Shown here: positions 50,147 to 59,409 of the stretch, in pieces | Layout: each line of letters starts with the position of its first letter | Numbering within the stretch: position 1 is the stretch's first letter | Assembly: GCA_001662655.1 (NCBI GenBank) | Contig: KV460234.1 | DNA length: 59,409 nt | Origin: Pseudogymnoascus verrucosus | Taxonomy: Eukaryota | Direction: 5' to 3' (one strand) | Program-made: the position numbers and the translations under genes | The notes under the pieces: model-generated | What the model was told of the DNA's origin: nothing | Seen by the model: only the letters and a program-made list of their open reading frames with translations | Database searches by the model: none

Positions 50147-53100
50147 ATGAGCGGCGATGAACAAGCCAGAGAACTAGGAAGAGGCCCGACAGAATTGGAA
50201 TCCCATATGCCATTTCAAGCCAGCACAGGGAAATTTACGGGGGAGATGCCGAACCAAGTTCACCAAGAACCGTCTTCGCCCTACAGACGCCCAGGAGCCT
50301 TTCCAGTTTCAGTTTCAGTGGCCATCGACCCGGTAGCTCTAATAACAACAGAATGCATAACCGTGGCATCTGCCATGCGTAAGCATGCTCGATGGGCCCA
50401 TTCATCAGTTTCGGCTATCCTTGGTGGGAGTACAAGCTCTTCAAACTCCGTTGCGGAAGGGTCCAGACCTTCAACGCCAGGACGCAGCCTTTCCGCTCGA
50501 AAAGGACACCAAGTTCGACCATCTCTTGTCGAACATGATAGTCTAGCAAACAGGTGGGGGCTGCGGGGGAAGAAGGGAAAGAGCATGCAAGATAACCCCT
50601 TAATGGCTGGCTTTGGACGCTTGAGGCGGGACTTGATCGGCTGCAAGGGTATATGTTCATTGCTATGCATATACAAGAGCATCTAGGCTAACATGCTGTG
50701 TAGATATTCGCAATTTCGACACTCCCGCGCTTCTCCACCCATTCCTCCAGGTTATCCAGGCATCCGCGACCTCAGCCCCTATTACCTCTTTAGCTCTCGT
50801 TGCTATTACGAAGTTTTTCTCCTATAATCTAATAAGCCGTGATTCTCCTAGGTTAGCCCTAGCAATGCAGTCGCTGTCGGCTGCTATTACGCATTGTAGG
50901 TTTGAAGCAAGTGATTCCGCAGCCGATGAGATTGTCCTCCTACGAATATTAAAGCTTATGGAAGGAATGATATCGGGACCTGGAGGAGAGCTGTTAAGTG
51001 ATGAAAGCGTCTGCGAAATGATGGAGACTGGCCTTAGTATGTGCTGCCAATCGAGATTGTCCGAGCTACTCCGTCGATCAGCGGAGATGTCGATGATCAA
51101 AATGTGCCAGGTAATATTTGAAAGATTGAAATACCTCGAGGTTGCAGCAGGAGAACATATCGAAGCTTTAGACGAAAGCACAAAGGAAGATATGGATGGC
51201 GTAAAGATGGATCCGTCCGCAAATGGCAACGATGCTGTTGCCTCGTCACTATCTGCGCCAACAGAGTCTGAATCGCTACCAAGAGTAAATCTGGACACCC
51301 CACAATCAACGGAGGCAAGCGGTGTGCCAACAAGCAACTACGAATCCGAAATTGGCGCCGGGCCAAGTTCAGAAGCTTCGGAAGACATTGAAATCAAGCC
51401 GTACTCGCTTCCATCGATCAGGGAACTCTTCCGTGTTCTAGTCGACCTCCTGAACCCGCAGGATCGCCAACATGTGGATGCCATGAGAGTCATGGCACTA
51501 CGTATTATTGACGTTGCCCTTGAAGTTGCTGGCCCGTCCATCTCCAAACATCCTAGTCTGGCATCACTCGCCGAAGATAGACTTTGCCGGCATCTGTTCC
51601 AGCTGGTGAGGTCTGACAATATGGCCATACTCCACGAATCCCTGATAGTTGCTGGCACGCTCTTGTCCACGTGTAGAGAGGTGTTGAAATTGCAGCAAGA
51701 ACTGTTCTTATCTTACATGGTGGCGTGTCTACACCCACGTGTTGAGATACCAAGGGAGCCAGGAATTGATCCATCACTGTACTCTGGCGTACCACAAGCT
51801 CCGAAACTAGTCAAACCACCGCCCTCGCAAACAAATAGCGGCCGGTCGACTCCGGTTCCTATCAAGGACAGGCAAAAACTAGGTATGGAGGGAGGGTCTC
51901 GGAAACCAGACGCGAGAGAGGCTATGGTGGAGAGTGTGGGCGCTCTTGCTCGCATTCCAACCTTTATGGTTGAGTTGTACGTGAACTACGATTGTGACGT
52001 GGATCGGAGTGATCTTTGTGAGGACATGGTCGGCCTTCTGTCACGTAATGCCATCCCTGACTCGGCCACCTGGAGTACGACAAGTGTCCCACCATTGTGT
52101 TTGGATGCTCTCCTGGGTTATGTGCAATTTATAAGCGAAAGACTTGACGAACCACCTCGAAGCGGAGATTACCCTGATCAAACCCAGTTGAGGGAACAAC
52201 GAAGGAGAAAGAAAATCATTATTAAGGGCACCACAAAGTTTAATGAGAGTCCAAAAGCAGGTATAGCCTACTTAACGTCTCAAGGGATAATCGATGACTC
52301 AAGCGATCCTGATTCTGTTGCTACGTTTTTGATGGGAACTAGCCGTATCTCTAAGAAAGTACTGGGCGAGTTCTTGTCGAAGAAGGGCAACGAACCCATC
52401 CTTGAGGCGTTCCTGAATCGATTTGATTTCTCGGGCAAACGTGTTGATGAGGCAGTGAGGGATCTCCTGGAGGCGTTCAGGTTACCAGGAGAGTCGGCTT
52501 TGATTGAACGAATCATTACTTACTTCTCGGAGAAATACTGCGCGCAGTCACCACCAGATGAGATCACAGACAAGGATGCGATATATGTCCTGACGTATGC
52601 CATCATTATATTGAACACAGACCAGCATAATCCCAACCTTAAGTCACAGAACCGGATGACGTTGAACGACTTCTCGAGGAACCTCCGTGGCGTAAATGGA
52701 GGAAAGGATTTTGCGCCACAATACCTTCAAGATATATTTGACTCCATCAAGTCGAACGAAATCATCCTACCTGATGAACACGATAACCAGCATGCCTTCG
52801 ATTACGCCTGGAAGGAGCTGCTGCTTAAATCCGAATCGGCCGGCAATCTAATCGCCTGCGACACAAACATTTATGACGCTGACATGTTTGAGGCAACATG
52901 GAAGCCCGTTATTGCAACTCTGTCCTATGTGTTTATGTCTGCCAGCGATGACGCTGTCTTCCACCGGGTTGTCACAGGATTTGATCAGTGTGCTCGAATT
53001 GCTACTCGGTATGGTATGACGGAAGCTCTGGACCAGATTGTCTACTGTCTCAGCTACATTAGCACCCTTGCAACAGTAACCCCGGCAAGCACAGCATTAA

Positions 53101-55310
53101 ACACGGAGATCCAAGTAGAGGATACGAGTGTTATGGTCAGTGAGATGGCTGTTAAATTTGGGAGAGATTTCAAGGCCCAATTAGCGACTGTTGTGTTGTT
53201 CCGTGTCGTGTCAGGCAGCGAGACTGTTATCAGAAATAGTTGGATACATGTGAGTCTCTAAGAACTGTAAATCTAAGCTGGGGATGCTAATATTTTGTTA
53301 GATTGTCCGCATATGGATCAATCTGTTTGTTAATAGCCTGATCCCACCATTCTTCTCTGCTGCACCGAATAGGATGCAAATTTCACCTATTCCTCTGCAG
53401 AACCCATCGCAGGTCATCGACCGTGGAGCCAAAGCCACCGATGCGGGCCTCTTTTCAGCATTTACTTCGTATATCTCGAGTTATGCTGCCGATGACCCAC
53501 CAGAGCCATCTGAGGAAGAGCTAGAGAGCACACTGTGCACAGTCGGATGCGTGAATGCGTGCTACATGGGCGATGTCTTCGCAAATATCATGTAAGATAA
53601 TCTCAAGATACGTGAATAACTCATAAACTAACATAATTTAGGGATTTGCCTGCGGAATCCTCACAGTACCTCATCGAAGCATTACTCTCGCAATTGCCAG
53701 ATGATCCTTCCTCTACGATTATAGCGGTAAAATCCGATAACAATGCTGCGACAGTGAATGGCCAGAAAACCCTTAGTGATGGACTAATTTATGACCCTGC
53801 ATTTGTCTATGTTTTGGAGCTATGCACCGTCCTGTCTCTGAAAGACGAGAACTCCGTTCTTCAGTCAGGAGCCCAGGTGTCAGAAGCACTGCAGAGTGTA
53901 ATCCGGGATTCTGCAAACTACCACCCTACACTGGTTGCTAGAGCTGTTTTCTATCTCCTCAGTCTTTTGCATGCGAGTTATGTCCGTATAACCGAACCCT
54001 TAGCTCTCCTTCAGGCTAACCAAACTTGTAGGAACACTCATTCATACGAGTCCCTGTCGTACTCCATACTATCTCTAGTTTCAAAAATGGGTTACTGGAT
54101 AAAGCGGCGCCCACTATTCTTGAAGGGATTAAGGCTTGTATCGAAAGTCCAGGCCCCCTACGCAATGAGATAATCACCTCGCCTGACTTCTGGGTCATCT
54201 TACGGGCACTTTCAAAGAACCAGCAAGCGTCTTCAACTGTTTTCCATATTTTGGAAGGGGTTACAACAGGGAAGACCCCACCTTCGATAATGGCCGACAA
54301 TTATGAGTCGGCCGTCTCTCTCTTGAATGATTTCGCATCTGCTGGAAGTATTGGATCTGTGCTGGAGCAAAAACAGGATACAAGATCTCGGAGAGGGCAG
54401 CAGACGAAGCCTTTAAAAGCCCAGTAAGTCACAGTTGAAGCTGAGTTGTAGGCACGCTAACATCTCAGGTCCGACGAGGTCGTTGAAAGAGGCGTTAAAG
54501 CAGTGGGAATGATATATCACCTCACGCCTAGAATTCCAACTTTGATGAAGCAATCCCATCTTGAAAGCGACAAAGGTTAGTAATGAAAGTATAATATAAT
54601 GAAGGCATACTGACGCAACACACAGCCTGGGAAGCGTATTGGTCCCCCATATTCAAAGCTCTGACAACTCAATGCATCAATCCGTGTCGTGAAATCCGAC
54701 ACCAAGCATTTTCATCCTTGCAACGGTCGCTTCTGTCAGAGGAGCTCAAGCTGGGCAGCCAGCATTCATGGACAGCCATATTTGAAGAAGTCTTGTTTCC
54801 ATTAATCTTCAGGTTACTTAAACCAGAGGTTTATTCAACGGATCCGATTGGCATGAGCGAAACACGGGTCCAGGCGGCAACCCTACTCTGCCGGATTTTC
54901 TTGCATTATCTACCTCTGTTGTCGACGTGGGAAGGGATGCTTGACTTATGGTTGAAAATTCTTGACATAATGGACCGACTGATGAACAGTGGACAAGGAG
55001 ACAGTCTAGTAAGTGAACAATTGAGGGAGGGCCGAGTAAATTACTGACTGTTGGACCTTAGGAGGAGGCTGTTCCAGAGAGCCTGAAAAACATTATTCTC
55101 GTAATGTCGACTAGCGAGTATCTTGCGCCACAAGTTGAAGATCCTTCTCAGGAGAAGCTTTGGACGGAAACTTGGAAGAGACTCGATAGGTTCTTACCGG
55201 ATCTTCGCGGCCAGCTTGGTCTGGAATCAAAGGAAATAGTCGTCGATAGCCATCCACGCCCGGCCACCCCAGAGAACACTGATATACCCCCTTCGTCTAC
55301 TGAGGAGTAA
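50147..55310 (+). CDS. Sec7-domain Arf guanine-nucleotide exchange factor of the GEA1/GEA2/GBF1 subfamily
   Basis: AITHCRFEASDSAADEIVLLRIL (DCB), YVNYDCD (HUS box), FRLPGESALIERI...YAIIILNTDQHNP (Sec7), CINPCREIRHQA and EAVPESLKNIILVM. Multiple introns. Confidence 0.93.
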
Positions 55311-55655
55311 CAACCTAGGTATGCAACGTCGAATCAGTAGTCCTCAGCGAATAATGCCAGACATTCATTGATGGGGAGGCAATCATGCGAATAACCAATG
55401 TACATAACTTATACCAACTATAATTACGAGTACTGTCGTAACTCAGCGTCAAACACTTGCAGTATTCAGAACTGCAACTTTTAACTTGTGCTTCAAGTAA
55501 ACTAATGCCCCAGAATTTTCGGAATCGATCATTTGCTGCTAAATTAGCTAATTAGTCAAATGCACCTAGCTAAGCAAACAATCACTTAAAGGGCAATGAC
55601 ATAATAAGACTCAAGACGATGAGAATTGATGTGTTGGGGGTGTATGTAGACGCTA

Positions 55656-56626
55656 ACGTAGGTCGTGGCCATACCGGGACTATGGCCATACCGGGAATCC
55701 GGCAACCAACACCAAATAGAGAGTCACGTGACTAAAATGAAAACCTTAATAACTTTTTAATTAGTAGATGTATAGCCTAGCCCTCTTATATTAACGATAT
55801 TTATATAGTTATCTAATATATATGAAAACGTTAGTAGTACTAGTTGTGTTTTATAAGAGATATTAAGGTTTAAACTTTTACTATACAAAATATTTATATG
55901 GCAAAACTTAAACTATAAATAACTCCTTTCTAAGGCTAGCTTACACTCTAAAACATTTAGCTATAGTATACATGTAGATAAAGAGTAAGAACATAAGAGG
56001 ATTAAGCTTTATAGGCACTATTGTAAAAGTTATTACAGATTTCATTTAGGTCACGTGACTCTTTATTTAGTGGTGGTTGCCGGATTCCCGGTATGGTCAT
56101 AGTCCCGGTAACGTAAGTCGTGGCCATACCGGCTTAATGGCCATACCGGCTTTTAGTACCTTTACATACAAGTTTGTATGTAATGATACTTACACTTACA
56201 AAAAATCAGAATATTATAACTCCTTTAATAAAAATGCTAGAGTATATCCCTCTTATATATAGAAACTTTAAACTATTATATACTATATATAAAAACGCTA
56301 ATAGCACTAGCTTCTTTTTGCATAAGTTATTAAAGATTTTAACTTTTATCATATAAAAATTTAGTATAGCAAATCTAAACTGTTAATAACTTCCTTATAA
56401 CACTAGCTTATATGCTAGTGTTTTTAATTATAAGGTATAGGTATATAAAGACACTTTATATAAGAAGGTTAAGTCCTACTATTTTTATTACAAAAGTTAT
56501 TAGGAATTCAATTGTAGGTCATGTGATGTAAATCTAACCAACTTTTAGTAGGGTCGGCAAATGAGCCGGTATGGCCATTGAGCCGGTATGGCCACGACTT
56601 ACTTACGTTATGGCCACGACCTACGT
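55656..56626. mobile_element. MITE A (Fot1/pogo-type, ~471 bp net), right TIR split by MITE B
   Basis: TA 55654-55 then ACGTAGGTCGTGGCCATACCGGGACTATGGCCATACCGG. The inverted copy runs to CCCGGTA 56110 and resumes TGGCCACGACCTACGT 56611-56626, then TA. Confidence 0.88.
56111..56608. mobile_element. MITE B (498 bp) nested in the TIR of MITE A with TA duplication
   Basis: ACGTAAGTCGTGGCCATACCGG...CCGGTATGGCCACGACTTACTTACGT, flanked by TA at 56109-10 and 56609-10. Confidence 0.88.
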
Positions 56627-56711
56627 TATGAGGTTGCTAGCTAACTACTTACAATACTAGATCAGCTATGTATTATATACTTAATACATATGTTATATTT
56701 TAAAAACATTA

Positions 56712-56954
56712 ACGTAGGTCATGGCCTAAAGGGCTACATGGCCTAAAGGGCTATTCTAGAAACCACACCAAAATCCACGTCACGTGACTAAAATTAAAAC
56801 CTTAATAACTTTTTAATTAACTGTTATAAAGCTTAATCCTCTTATATTATTACTCTTTATATATGCATACATTAGGGTTTAATTTGTAATAATGTAAGCT
56901 AGTCTTATTAAAGAGTTATTTATAGTTTAAGTTTTACTATATAAATATTTTATA
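56712..56954. mobile_element. Left half of MITE C (CCTAAAGGG motif), truncated by MITE D
   Basis: TA then ACGTAGGTCATGGCCTAAAGGGCTACATGGCCTAAAGGG. Body is homologous to the MITE A arms and ends in the central dyad. Confidence 0.8.
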
Positions 56955-57438
56955 ACGTAAGTCGTGGTCAGACCGGCTACATGGCCAGACCGGCTATTAG
57001 TACCATCACATACAAATTTGTATGCAGAAGTACTTATGCTTGCGAAAAATTAGAACTATAATAACTCTACTAATAAAAATGCTAGAGCAAATCCCTTTTG
57101 TATATAGAAACTTTAAGTACGTATCTACTATATATAAAAAGGGTAATATTACTAGTATCTTTTTACATAAGTTAATAACAGTTTTAAGTTTTACTATATA
57201 AATATTTGTATAGTAAAAATATAAGCCTTAATATCTCTTGTAAAACAAAGCTAGTACTACTAGTGTTTATATACATGTTAGATTATTATATGAAAAAACA
57301 TAATTTAAGAGGATTAAGCTTTATATACACTATTACAAAAGTTATTATGGTTTTAATTTTGGTTTAGTGACCTTGGTTTTGGTGGGGTGAGCTAAGTAGC
57401 CGGTCTGGCCATGTAGCCGGTCTGACCACGACTTACGT
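56955..57438. mobile_element. MITE D (484 bp, (T/C)CAGACCGG motif), both TIRs intact
   Basis: Perfect ~42-bp TIR ACGTAAGTCGTGGTCAGACCGGCTACATGGCCAGACCGGCTA, with TA on both sides. Confidence 0.9.
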
Positions 57439-57440
57439 TA

Positions 57441-57473
57441 TGGCCATGTAGCCGGTATGGCCACGACTTACGT
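57441..57473. mobile_element. Orphan right TIR remnant (CCATACCGG motif)
   Basis: TGGCCATGTAGCCGGTATGGCCACGACTTACGT followed by TA. Confidence 0.75.
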
Positions 57474-57475
57474 TA

Positions 57476-57689
57476 CCTCTTGGGCAGGATTGGGTTCCGC
57501 GATTCATTCAAAGGCATCCTAACTTATGTGTTAAGTTAGGACGTAGAGTTGAGGCACAGAGGATGAATGGGGTGACAAAAGAGGTGTTGAAGGGGTGGTT
57601 TGACGCGTACAAAAACCTCATAACAGAGCTAAAAATCGAAAACTACAACGCCTACAATATAGATGAGACTGGATTTTCAATTGGAACTA
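57476..57689 (+). pseudogene. Fragment of a Fot1/pogo DDE transposase
   Basis: PLGQDWVPRFIQRHPNL...QRMNGVTKEVLKGWFDAY...YNIDETGFSIG covers the end of the CENP-B HTH (W..RF..RHP) and the first catalytic Asp motif (YNMDETGF consensus). Cut at both ends by MITE termini. Confidence 0.88.
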
Positions 57690-58164
57690 ACGTAAGTCGT
57701 GGCGTAATGCGCCTATGTACCTTTACAGCTAAATTTATATGTAATGGTACTTAGATCTTAAAATCTCAAACTTAAATAACTCTATTAATAAAATTATTAA
57801 GACTTATTCCTCTTATATATAAGATGTTTATATACTTATACACTCTACTTAATTATGCTATAATATAAGCTAACCTAATATAGAAGATATTAGCAAGTAT
57901 AAATTTGCTATACTAATATTTTGTATGGTAAATACTTTAACGCTTAATACCTTATGCAAATTAATATATATGATAGTAACATTCTTATATATAGAAGATT
58001 AGTATATATAGACCCTCTATATAAGAGGAATAAGTCTTAATAATTTTATTAATAGAGTTATTTAACTTTGAGATTTTAAGATCTAAGTACCATTACATAT
58101 AAATTTAGCTGTAAAGGTACATAGGCGCATTACGCCATTAGGCGCATTACGCCACGACTTACGT
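57690..58164. mobile_element. MITE E (475 bp, CGTAATGCG motif) with ~130-bp near-perfect inverted arms
   Basis: ACGTAAGTCGTGGCGTAATGCGCCTATGTACC...GGTACATAGGCGCATTACGCCATTAGGCGCATTACGCCACGACTTACGT, flanked by TA. The left end has one motif copy and the right end two. Confidence 0.9.
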
Positions 58165-58166
58165 TA

Positions 58167-58312
58167 GTAATTGAATTATTTACGATTTTCTAAGTTAGTA
58201 GTTGGGTGGTCTACTCCTGGATTTTGGTGGGGTTTTCAAAATAGCCGGTTACACCATGTAGCCGGTTACACCACGACCTACGTTACTATGTGAGTAAGGC
58301 CATGACTTACGT
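58167..58312. mobile_element. Right end of MITE F (TGTAACCGG motif, to 58283) plus a further TIR stub G (CCTTACTCA, to 58312)
   Basis: CCGGTTACACCATGTAGCCGGTTACACCACGACCTACGT-TA, then TGAGTAAGGCCATGACTTACGT-TA. Confidence 0.75.
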
Positions 58313-58562
58313 TACCTCCGTAATAAGTAAACTCTATACATTCTATTATTTTAGAATGTAGTGTTATAAGTAGGCGTTCTACTTTTATATAGTTTAATGG
58401 TTTTAACAGTATTACTATCCTTTTTAAAGCTATTATAAGCTTTAGCTTAGGCTTATAACTATTAGCTTTATAGAGGCTTAAGTCTTAGAAGGAAAAAACT
58501 TACCTATTTTTAAAGGTCTAATTCTAAGTTTATATAATAATGAGTTTTCCTTTTATATAAAC

Positions 58563-58925
58563 CTACTAGCATACTATTCTATATATGTTCTAAGTTATTA
58601 TAGAAGTTATACCTTCTAAACCTATGTTCTAGGTTATTACTTATTATTATTATTACTATACATGTTCTAGGTTATTACATAAGTGTTTGTTTGTTTATTT
58701 ACATATAATATTATAGTTATATGCATTGCTACTCTAATAGCTACTAGCAAACTATTCTACATATGTTCTAAGTTATCACGTAAGCTTTCACCTCCTATAT
58801 ACACCCTATGTTCTAGGTTATTACGTAGTGTTGTTGTTCCTATATGTGTTCTAAGTTATTATGTAAGTAAGTGTTTGTTTATATACACGTGACATTGTTA
58901 TCACGTGCATTGCCACTCTAACAAC
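58563..58925. repeat. ~178-bp tandem duplication, each unit with three TGTTCTA(A/G)GTTAT subrepeats
   Basis: Units start CTACTAGCA.ACTATTCTA at 58563 and 58741. Differences are mostly C/T and G/A transitions. Confidence 0.7.
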
Positions 58926-59118
58926 ATATCTGTGATATTTTTTAATTTAATTTACCCTACCTATATGTTAAAAACCGTTAAACTACGTAAAAGTGAAAGT
59001 ACAACACTTATTATAGTCTTAATTTTTCATAACGCCATTACGCTATTACACCCATTATACTATACTACATGTAAGCTACATTATAAGTTAACAATTCAGA
59101 TATTAATTATATTAACTA

Positions 59119-59409
59119 ACGTAGGTCATGGCCTAAAGGGCTACATGACCTAAAGGGCTATTCTAGAAACCACACCAAAATCCACGCTACGTGACTAAAA
59201 TTAAAACCTTAATAACTTCTGTAATAATGGTTATAAATCTTAATGCTCTTAGACTATTACTCTTTATATAATCATCTAATATATGTAAAAACGCTAGTAG
59301 CGCTAGTCTTATTTTACAATAAATATTAAGGTTTTAACTTTTACTATAACGTAAGTCGTGGTCAGACCGGCTACATGGCCAGACCGGCTACTTAGCTCAC
59401 CCCACCAAA
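59119..59409. mobile_element. Left half of MITE H (C-type) interrupted at 59349 by MITE I (D-type, opposite orientation), running off the window
   Basis: 59119 ACGTAGGTCATGGCCTAAAGGG...; 59349 ACGTAAGTCGTGGTCAGACCGG...TTAGCTCACCCCACCAAA is the reverse complement of the right end of D. Confidence 0.85.

Follow-up and report, generated by a model that had tools for sequence, protein, structure and literature searches.

The window analysed here, the whole 59,409-nt stretch, is the end of a contig (C29) in the Pseudogymnoascus verrucosus assembly (G000 below; 30.2 Mb, 151 contigs), and beyond its last host gene it carries nested transposable elements with a common terminal scaffold, which marks a Fot1/pogo (Tc1/mariner) clan in a fungus affected by repeat-induced point mutation (RIP). 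[quoted passage not shown] The initial annotation, which lettered the elements of the window A to I, had suggested a common non-autonomous chassis re-addressed to different transposase specificities; that suggestion is supported by the incongruence of bodies and addresses and by HTHs specific to each motif.

One terminal scaffold, many addresses

Exact matches to the scaffold number 262 in G000 and zero in the reversed control. With up to one mismatch the window holds 14 (13 of them exact; 0.63 expected), all within 55654-59358, and the scaffold and 17-bp period described for these ends are present where they had been reported. From the scaffold-bearing DNA, which held 259 of the 262 exact matches, a nested parse recovered 68 complete elements and left 133 ends unpaired. 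The complete elements fall into sharp length classes (54 at 444-509 bp, 9 at 278-310 bp and 5 at 1935-2001 bp), and 67/68 have TA flanks on both sides. Since the parser paired ends by their repeat match, the agreement of addresses from end to end is partly built in; the length classes and TA flanks give independent support for the pairing. The 9-bp motif had been said to match both between repeats and between ends. It is identical between the repeats in 85 of the 136 ends of complete elements and one base different in another 38, and it is identical between both ends in 58 of 68 elements, a figure partly due to pairing by match.

The address, as we use the term, is the 14 nt that follow TGG in the 17-bp repeat unit. 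By this definition 239 ends carry 64 distinct 14-mers (39 clusters; 31 seen at least twice). Within MITE families, 130 of 190 transitions are C-to-T at CpA, the signature of RIP.

A divergent N-terminus on a conserved transposase

G000 contains 92 DDE_1 matches spread over several pogo families. The scaffold-bearing autonomous elements encode a 580-residue transposase, unbroken in C116, with a DDE_1 domain (PF03184, E 5e-28) and a CENP-B type HTH, HTH_Tnp_Tc5 (PF03221, E 1.5e-7); its fold is nearest to Mos1 transpososomes (E 2e-6). All five complete autonomous elements have TA flanks and fall in the 1935-2001 bp class, and judged by sequence the elements appear to be ordinary Fot1/pogo members of Tc1/mariner. 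Named relatives among the 120 best listed are from Pseudogymnoascus, Sclerotinia and Lipomyces. Pogo-type DDE_1 genes without this scaffold but with long open frames (C46, C34, C19:210612, C2 and C67) are dispersed, not clustered.

At the N-terminus the predicted model shows a three-helix HTH with a predicted local distance difference test score (pLDDT) of 85-88. HTH_psq (PF05225) weakly matched 17 of 29 aligned N-termini (E up to 0.05), C36 among them and C116 not, and sequence searches of solved structures with the N-terminus gave nothing significant. In total 40 5' ends extend to the start codon. One copy per address was taken into a set of 20 lineages, from which C39, which has diverged and lost its frame, and C55:10762, with 40 codons, were excluded, the latter entering only the comparison of MITEs with their partners. 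Over these lineages codons 1-63 have 52% amino-acid identity (proportions of silent and replacement differences, pS 0.64 and pN 0.30) and silent sites close to saturation, compared with 89-93% identity in the second HTH and 92% in the DDE core, residues 231-340 (pS 0.22, pN 0.035). As RIP makes no transversions, fourfold sites were compared by transversions only, to avoid its effect. These amount to 1199/3247 (37%) in codons 1-63, 281/3839 in codons 136-230 and 121/2777 (4%) in codons 231-340, from which it follows that the cassettes long predate the ancestry that the bodies share. A young HTH under pure positive selection was rejected, since silent sites have diverged as much, which makes the cassettes old.

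Distances in codons 1-63 and 231-340 are uncorrelated (r −0.15), and we infer that the bodies are homogenised by recombination or conversion. Two full-length open genes, C117:852-2842 and C55:10997-14024, are hybrids in which the address of the 5' end differs from that of the 3' end, and by their sequence look like single crossovers. A length-variable glutamine-rich tract (residues ~108-128) lies inside the second HTH, just downstream of the point where the variable cassette gives way to the homogenised body.

Addresses covary with two helices

Helices are predicted at residues 2-24, 31-38, 42-49 and 55-62 (pLDDT 85-88 over 11-50 and ~65 over 51-60), and we take residues 42-49 to be the recognition helix. 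Residues 41-50 (r 0.55, p 0.0005), and not residues 52-62 (r −0.08), covary with address positions 6-12, whereas positions 1-5 covary with residues 52-62 (r 0.65, p 0.0005) and not with 41-50 (r 0.10, p 0.15). For address against body and against the second HTH, r is −0.05 and 0.02. The top pairs among 752 tested join address position 3 to residues 55, 59 and 60, position 4 to 59, position 7 to 41, position 9 to 43, and position 13 to 32 and 36. This pattern suggests that the recognition helix (42-49) reads unit positions ~6-12 and the following helix (55-62) positions ~1-5. A single transposase serving all motifs would have been a uniform protein; instead, each motif has its own covarying N-terminal HTH, with the qualification that by their catalytic domain (~92% identical) all clan transposases are one family.

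We also inspected metagenome loci (labelled L), 80 of them kept from 228. Ten of the 80 show this scaffold at a 5' end, with protein identities of 53-83%. Locus L162 repeats the address-HTH pairing of C116:1154, its unusual residue 59 included, at 89% identity over residues 1-63, and L161 repeats another pairing of G000; among metagenome loci with differing addresses, identity over this region is 51-65%. The orphan MITE C7:704552 has its partner in L175, which bears the same address. The contrast between variable HTH and conserved body recurs in the close group of loci (57-65% vs 86-96%) and, less strongly, in the distant one. Next to relatives that are ≤47% identical, the end search turned up no clan-type ends.

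A shared MITE body with different ends

The 54 elements of 444-509 bp, AT-rich and with TA on both sides, are MITEs, and form 28 groups at 90%. The analysis used 27 families, of 470-510 bp, omitting a divergent C9 element and replacing C81:711 by C105:1094. Divergence of the cores within families averages 2.4% over 25 copies. The bodies are partly palindromic and homologous across families, as had been claimed: 28 representatives have a mean identity of 67% (53-90%), compared with 58% (maximum 62%) in shuffled controls.

For 16 of 27 families an autonomous 5' end lies within one mismatch, and autonomous 3' ends match four more, which gives 20/27 in total. These matching ends, like the empty site of C/H in run X2 (below), bear indirectly on whether partner transposases mobilise the MITEs in trans. 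Identity between MITE and partner mostly ends at nt 40-46, just past the second repeat; at some ends (C105:3613, C128:739, B of the window and C108:2397) it reaches nt 61-67 and includes autonomous subterminal sequence. Derivation of a MITE from its matching autonomous element by deletion was rejected, the interior having no meaningful similarity to the partner: 54 bodies against 11 autonomous sequences gave only two hits of 26-37 nt (E 0.002-0.006), and tblastn none. The MITE cores were unmatched in the 80 metagenome loci, which are short and transposase-selected and hence little informative here. A 293-bp MITE family (9 copies, including C32:2636-2928) combines a clan address with a body that has no homology to the autonomous elements or, beyond a single 35-nt subterminal hit, to the 480-bp chassis, and by its sequence appears to be a second, independent parasite.

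Body distance barely tracks the address (Mantel r ~0.1). In fixed orientation, in which the body tree misplaced at least C35:1481, body against address gives r 0.07 (p 0.16). With orientation left free, body against partner cassette gives r 0.10-0.16, which is not significant (p 0.08-0.18). The cores of C127:531 and C105:1094 are 4.4% apart and their partners 24%, while those of C120:905 and C105:1094 are 8.8% apart with partners 22% apart and 7/14 address bases different. Conversely, the same address occurs on cores 24% apart, and near-identical addresses (1-2 nt) on cores 31-33% apart. Two single-copy mosaics look in their sequence like half-way conversions: C108:2397, whose last arm is E-like (87-100%) with the outer repeat alone changed, and C72:4022, with a D body and a B-type left end. 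From these data, ends moved onto a body are not always distinguishable from a body replaced between ends. The likeliest reading is that recombination repeatedly separates ends from bodies, in MITEs as well as in autonomous elements.

Anatomy of the window

The features of the window are as follows (strand is given where one applies).

50637-55310, plus strand: 3' part of a host gene, with introns, for a Sec7-domain guanine nucleotide exchange factor of ADP-ribosylation factors (ARF-GEF, Gea/GBF1 type; PF01369, E 2.8e-69; PF12783), its 3' end taken from the sequence
55656-56626: MITE A, 471 bp minus B, TA on both sides
56111-56608: MITE B, 498 bp, at a TA within the right terminal repeat of A
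56629-56709: AT-rich spacer present in one copy, flanking the C/H insertion on the left (run X2 contig 12)
56712-56952, plus strand: C, left half of a 471-bp MITE, address matching autonomous 5' end C5:821825
56955-57438: MITE D, 484 bp, at the central TA of C/H
57441-57473, minus strand: outer stub of a B-type terminus, broken at a TA by a D-family copy
57476-57687, plus strand: clan transposase gene fragment, residues ~131-201, cut on both sides by insertions (TA at codons 130 and 201)
57690-58164: MITE E, 475 bp, left end short of one repeat
58167-58283, plus strand: F, an autonomous element's 3' untranslated region with its 3' terminal repeat; C32:3409 has the same end
58286-58312, minus strand: G, 27-bp outer stub, similar to the end with one repeat in autonomous lineage C116:1154
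58315-59116: separate AT-rich repeat, ~450-bp conserved core, 178-bp internal duplication
59119-59346, plus strand: H, right half of the C/H MITE, reversed, 57441-59346 being inverted between D and I
59349-59409, plus strand: I, first part of another D-family copy, in the opposite orientation to D and cut by the contig end

The ARF-GEF gene is a neighbour outside the transposon system; past it, where the nested elements start, GC content falls from ~49% to 31%. The initial annotation had placed six motifs on MITEs, which has to be revised to five MITE families in the window (A, B, C/H, D/I and E), F being an autonomous 3' end and G a stub of an autonomous-type end. A and B do share the 9-bp motif as proposed, but they carry different addresses, because the 5-nt spacer belongs to the variable unit, and have different autonomous partners. 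The address of A is that of autonomous 5' end C117:2842, and G000 has three further full copies of A; the right end of B, whose scaffold has a 4-nt duplication, agrees with autonomous 3' end C107:8648 up to nt 62; the address of D is that of autonomous 5' end C117:3409. An autonomous partner of E was not found in G000, the nearest 5' end being 3 mismatches away; a near-identical address occurs on the distant relatives L166 and L171. On its own, the transposase fragment 57476-57687 gave no Pfam match.

C and H, previously taken as separate copies, each match the same 471-bp family at 99-100%. Run X1 contigs link 56952 to 59348 on opposite strands, and a run X2 contig links 56708 to 59119 without C/H, an empty site. 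The family match, the lengths (241+2+228 nt) and these joins make C and H a single MITE that a D-family copy has split; between D and I, which lie in opposite orientations, the segment 57441-59346 is inverted. This inversion is either real recombination or an assembly mis-join. A run X2 contig has the right end of A and lacks C/H (56520-56708), and a run X3 contig diverges from the window (55419-55653) exactly at the insertion site of A; these contigs point to insertion polymorphism among related organisms.

Insertion sites and an AT-rich repeat

Targeting of the termini of other elements was rejected: 14 of 265 ends lie within the first 70 nt of another end, which is no enrichment because 8.8% of cluster TA sites fall in that zone. 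Twelve ends (6 pairs) adjoin via one TA, compared with 1.3% of sites, at most a weak excess. Within the transposase open reading frame (ORF; 122 TA sites, 44 mapped ends), insertions recur at the TAs of codons 130, 201 and 381, with 4, 3 and 3 ends from different contigs and families; 57474 and 57688 in the window are examples. The AT-rich repeat has 33 matches in G000, nearly all on clan-cluster stretches (C19:14244 left out), and accounts for most of the recurrent non-clan AT-rich DNA between elements. A candidate terminal repeat for it had only 4 occurrences in the search. It may be a favoured landing pad, or else an older element of the host.

Alternative explanations

Several observations weigh against linked cassettes and a re-addressed MITE body. 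Among the recovered complete elements just one, C116, has an unbroken ORF, and for 7/27 MITE families G000 offers no autonomous end that matches. The lineages are related, and the Mantel and mutual-information values, uncorrected for phylogeny, overstate their independence; rarer unit states occur mostly in related lineages, and residues 1-40 likewise covary with the address, more weakly (r 0.29). The out-of-sample test is one-sided, because the other nine metagenome 5' ends have the common state at positions 3-4 with R59 (9/9) and L162 is one known exception. In best orientation, body and address give a weak positive signal (r 0.12-0.13, p 0.03-0.05), and two MITE clades in part mirror the HTH clades of their partners. 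The C117 and C55 hybrids are possibly assembly joins, and the single-copy mosaics could be too.

The weak correlation and the mirrored clades would fit a history in which every MITE family had a single origin, jointly with its partner, and then tracked its address by point mutation, with saturation, RIP and short palindromic alignments blurring the congruence. Indeed, the clade of C120:905, C127:531, C105:1094 and C35:1481 pairs with three neighbouring HTH lineages, and the second largely with another HTH clade. Such co-divergence is nevertheless improbable, given cores 4-9% apart whose partners differ by 22-28% and whose addresses differ at 3-7 of 14 nt, the single address on cores 24% apart, and autonomous subterminal sequence captured at one end only alongside half-converted mosaics.

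The signal in residues 1-40 would fit a loose key, in which the shared scaffold allows free cross-mobilisation and address-HTH covariation is linkage in an old non-recombining 300-bp block. The silent divergence of codons 1-63 is as expected of old linked haplotypes, and hybrids with unmatched ends exist. Linkage alone, however, predicts neither the double dissociation between helices, nor a matching 3' terminal repeat 1.9 kb off, across the recombining body, nor unrelated MITE bodies that bear the exact address in each repeat of both ends, and we regard a loose key as unlikely.

Chimeric joins of collapsed repeats could also mimic decoupling. The clusters are at contig ends and in small contigs, many transposase copies are collapsed, since the summed X1 contig depth over the transposase fragment far exceeds single-copy depth, and the D/I inversion could itself be such a join. 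Yet address and HTH lie within ~300 bp, and their pairing recurs across several copies and other samples; the MITE families are multi-copy, with different flanks, diverged cores and one address shared by the two ends; and runs X2, X3 and X7 contain pieces of these families. An artefact of assembly is thus very improbable.

Proposed mechanism

If, as we think probable, linked cassettes sit on a shared recombining body, a cassette (~300 bp) would comprise the terminal repeat unit, a short 5' untranslated or promoter region, the N-terminal psq-type HTH and the fourth helix, travelling linked. The HTH of each cassette would read its own 17-bp unit through the two helices, a lock-and-key binding specificity under which lineages would not mobilise one another, and invariant parts of the transposase may read the shared scaffold. 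The long catalytic body would recombine freely and be continually homogenised, with end-to-end conversion restoring the 3' terminal repeat. One ancient, partly palindromic, non-coding MITE body of ~480 bp would exploit the clan enzymes, copying 40-67 nt of an autonomous end by templated repair or exchanging arms with another MITE; its foldback shape may help it to acquire an address, which would then be copied onto the opposite end. Rare addresses might be favoured because they escape MITEs and dead copies. More tentatively, and with some doubt, this may amount to a three-way arms race with 20-30 orthogonal HTH-repeat pairs and a modular two-helix code, the cassettes being an old balanced polymorphism, like self-incompatibility alleles, and the MITE chassis chasing them.

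Relation to known systems and significance

Non-autonomous elements that resemble their partners at the ends only include Stowaway with Osmar in rice and mimp with impala in Fusarium, and CORE-SINEs join a shared body to ends from different long interspersed elements (LINEs) by tail swapping. We know of no case among these in which a shared DNA-transposon chassis is matched to a series of HTH variants.

Trem, Aft1 and Tan1 are Fot1/pogo elements of ~1.9 kb with a TA duplication and 42-49 bp terminal repeats holding two 17-bp direct repeats (PMC2836289), and the clan shares their size, TA duplication and paired 17-bp repeats. Mariner_SS of Sclerotinia has ends starting with ACGT, the domains HTH_psq, HTH_Tnp_Tc5 and DDE, and a few MITEs, of 481-813 nt (PMC4188875). 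These families are separated as whole divergent elements, whereas here ~20 addresses sit on a body >90% identical and the address covaries residue by residue with two helices.

The piggyBac-type CMITEs of Acropora have a conserved interior of unknown origin with different terminal repeats, and one element bore the body of another family (PMC2872659). They comprise three families, one tied to a transposon, with no transposase-side covariation described, compared with 27 families here, 20 of them tied. In Daphnia, the coexisting lineages PokeyA and PokeyB have different ends and a MITE each (mPok1 and mPok2), and loss of cross-recognition, the mariner model of Lampe et al. (2001), is cited as permitting lineages to coexist (PMC3849761). 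The Pokey lineages are ~40% divergent overall and the mPok elements apparently deletion derivatives, as are the mariner MITEs of Drosophila (PMC4161770); the Lampe threshold is >16% divergence of the whole element. The clan, in contrast, differs in a 300-bp cassette only, and its MITE body is no deletion derivative. In the literature covered (titles and abstract openings, with most subscription work, including that on Fusarium pogo, mimp and Osmar/Stowaway, outside coverage), we found neither address cassettes on a homogenised transposase nor a MITE chassis matched to such cassettes.

How families of DNA transposons split in specificity, and how MITEs find partners that are not their parents, are long-standing questions, usually approached with very divergent pairs. 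Here ~20 natural pairs differ in a 63-residue module only. With a near-identical enzyme and matched MITEs, specificity, cross-mobilisation and the parasite-escape model become testable in one matrix, and if the pairs are orthogonal, the set would be a source of cut-and-paste tools that do not cross-react.

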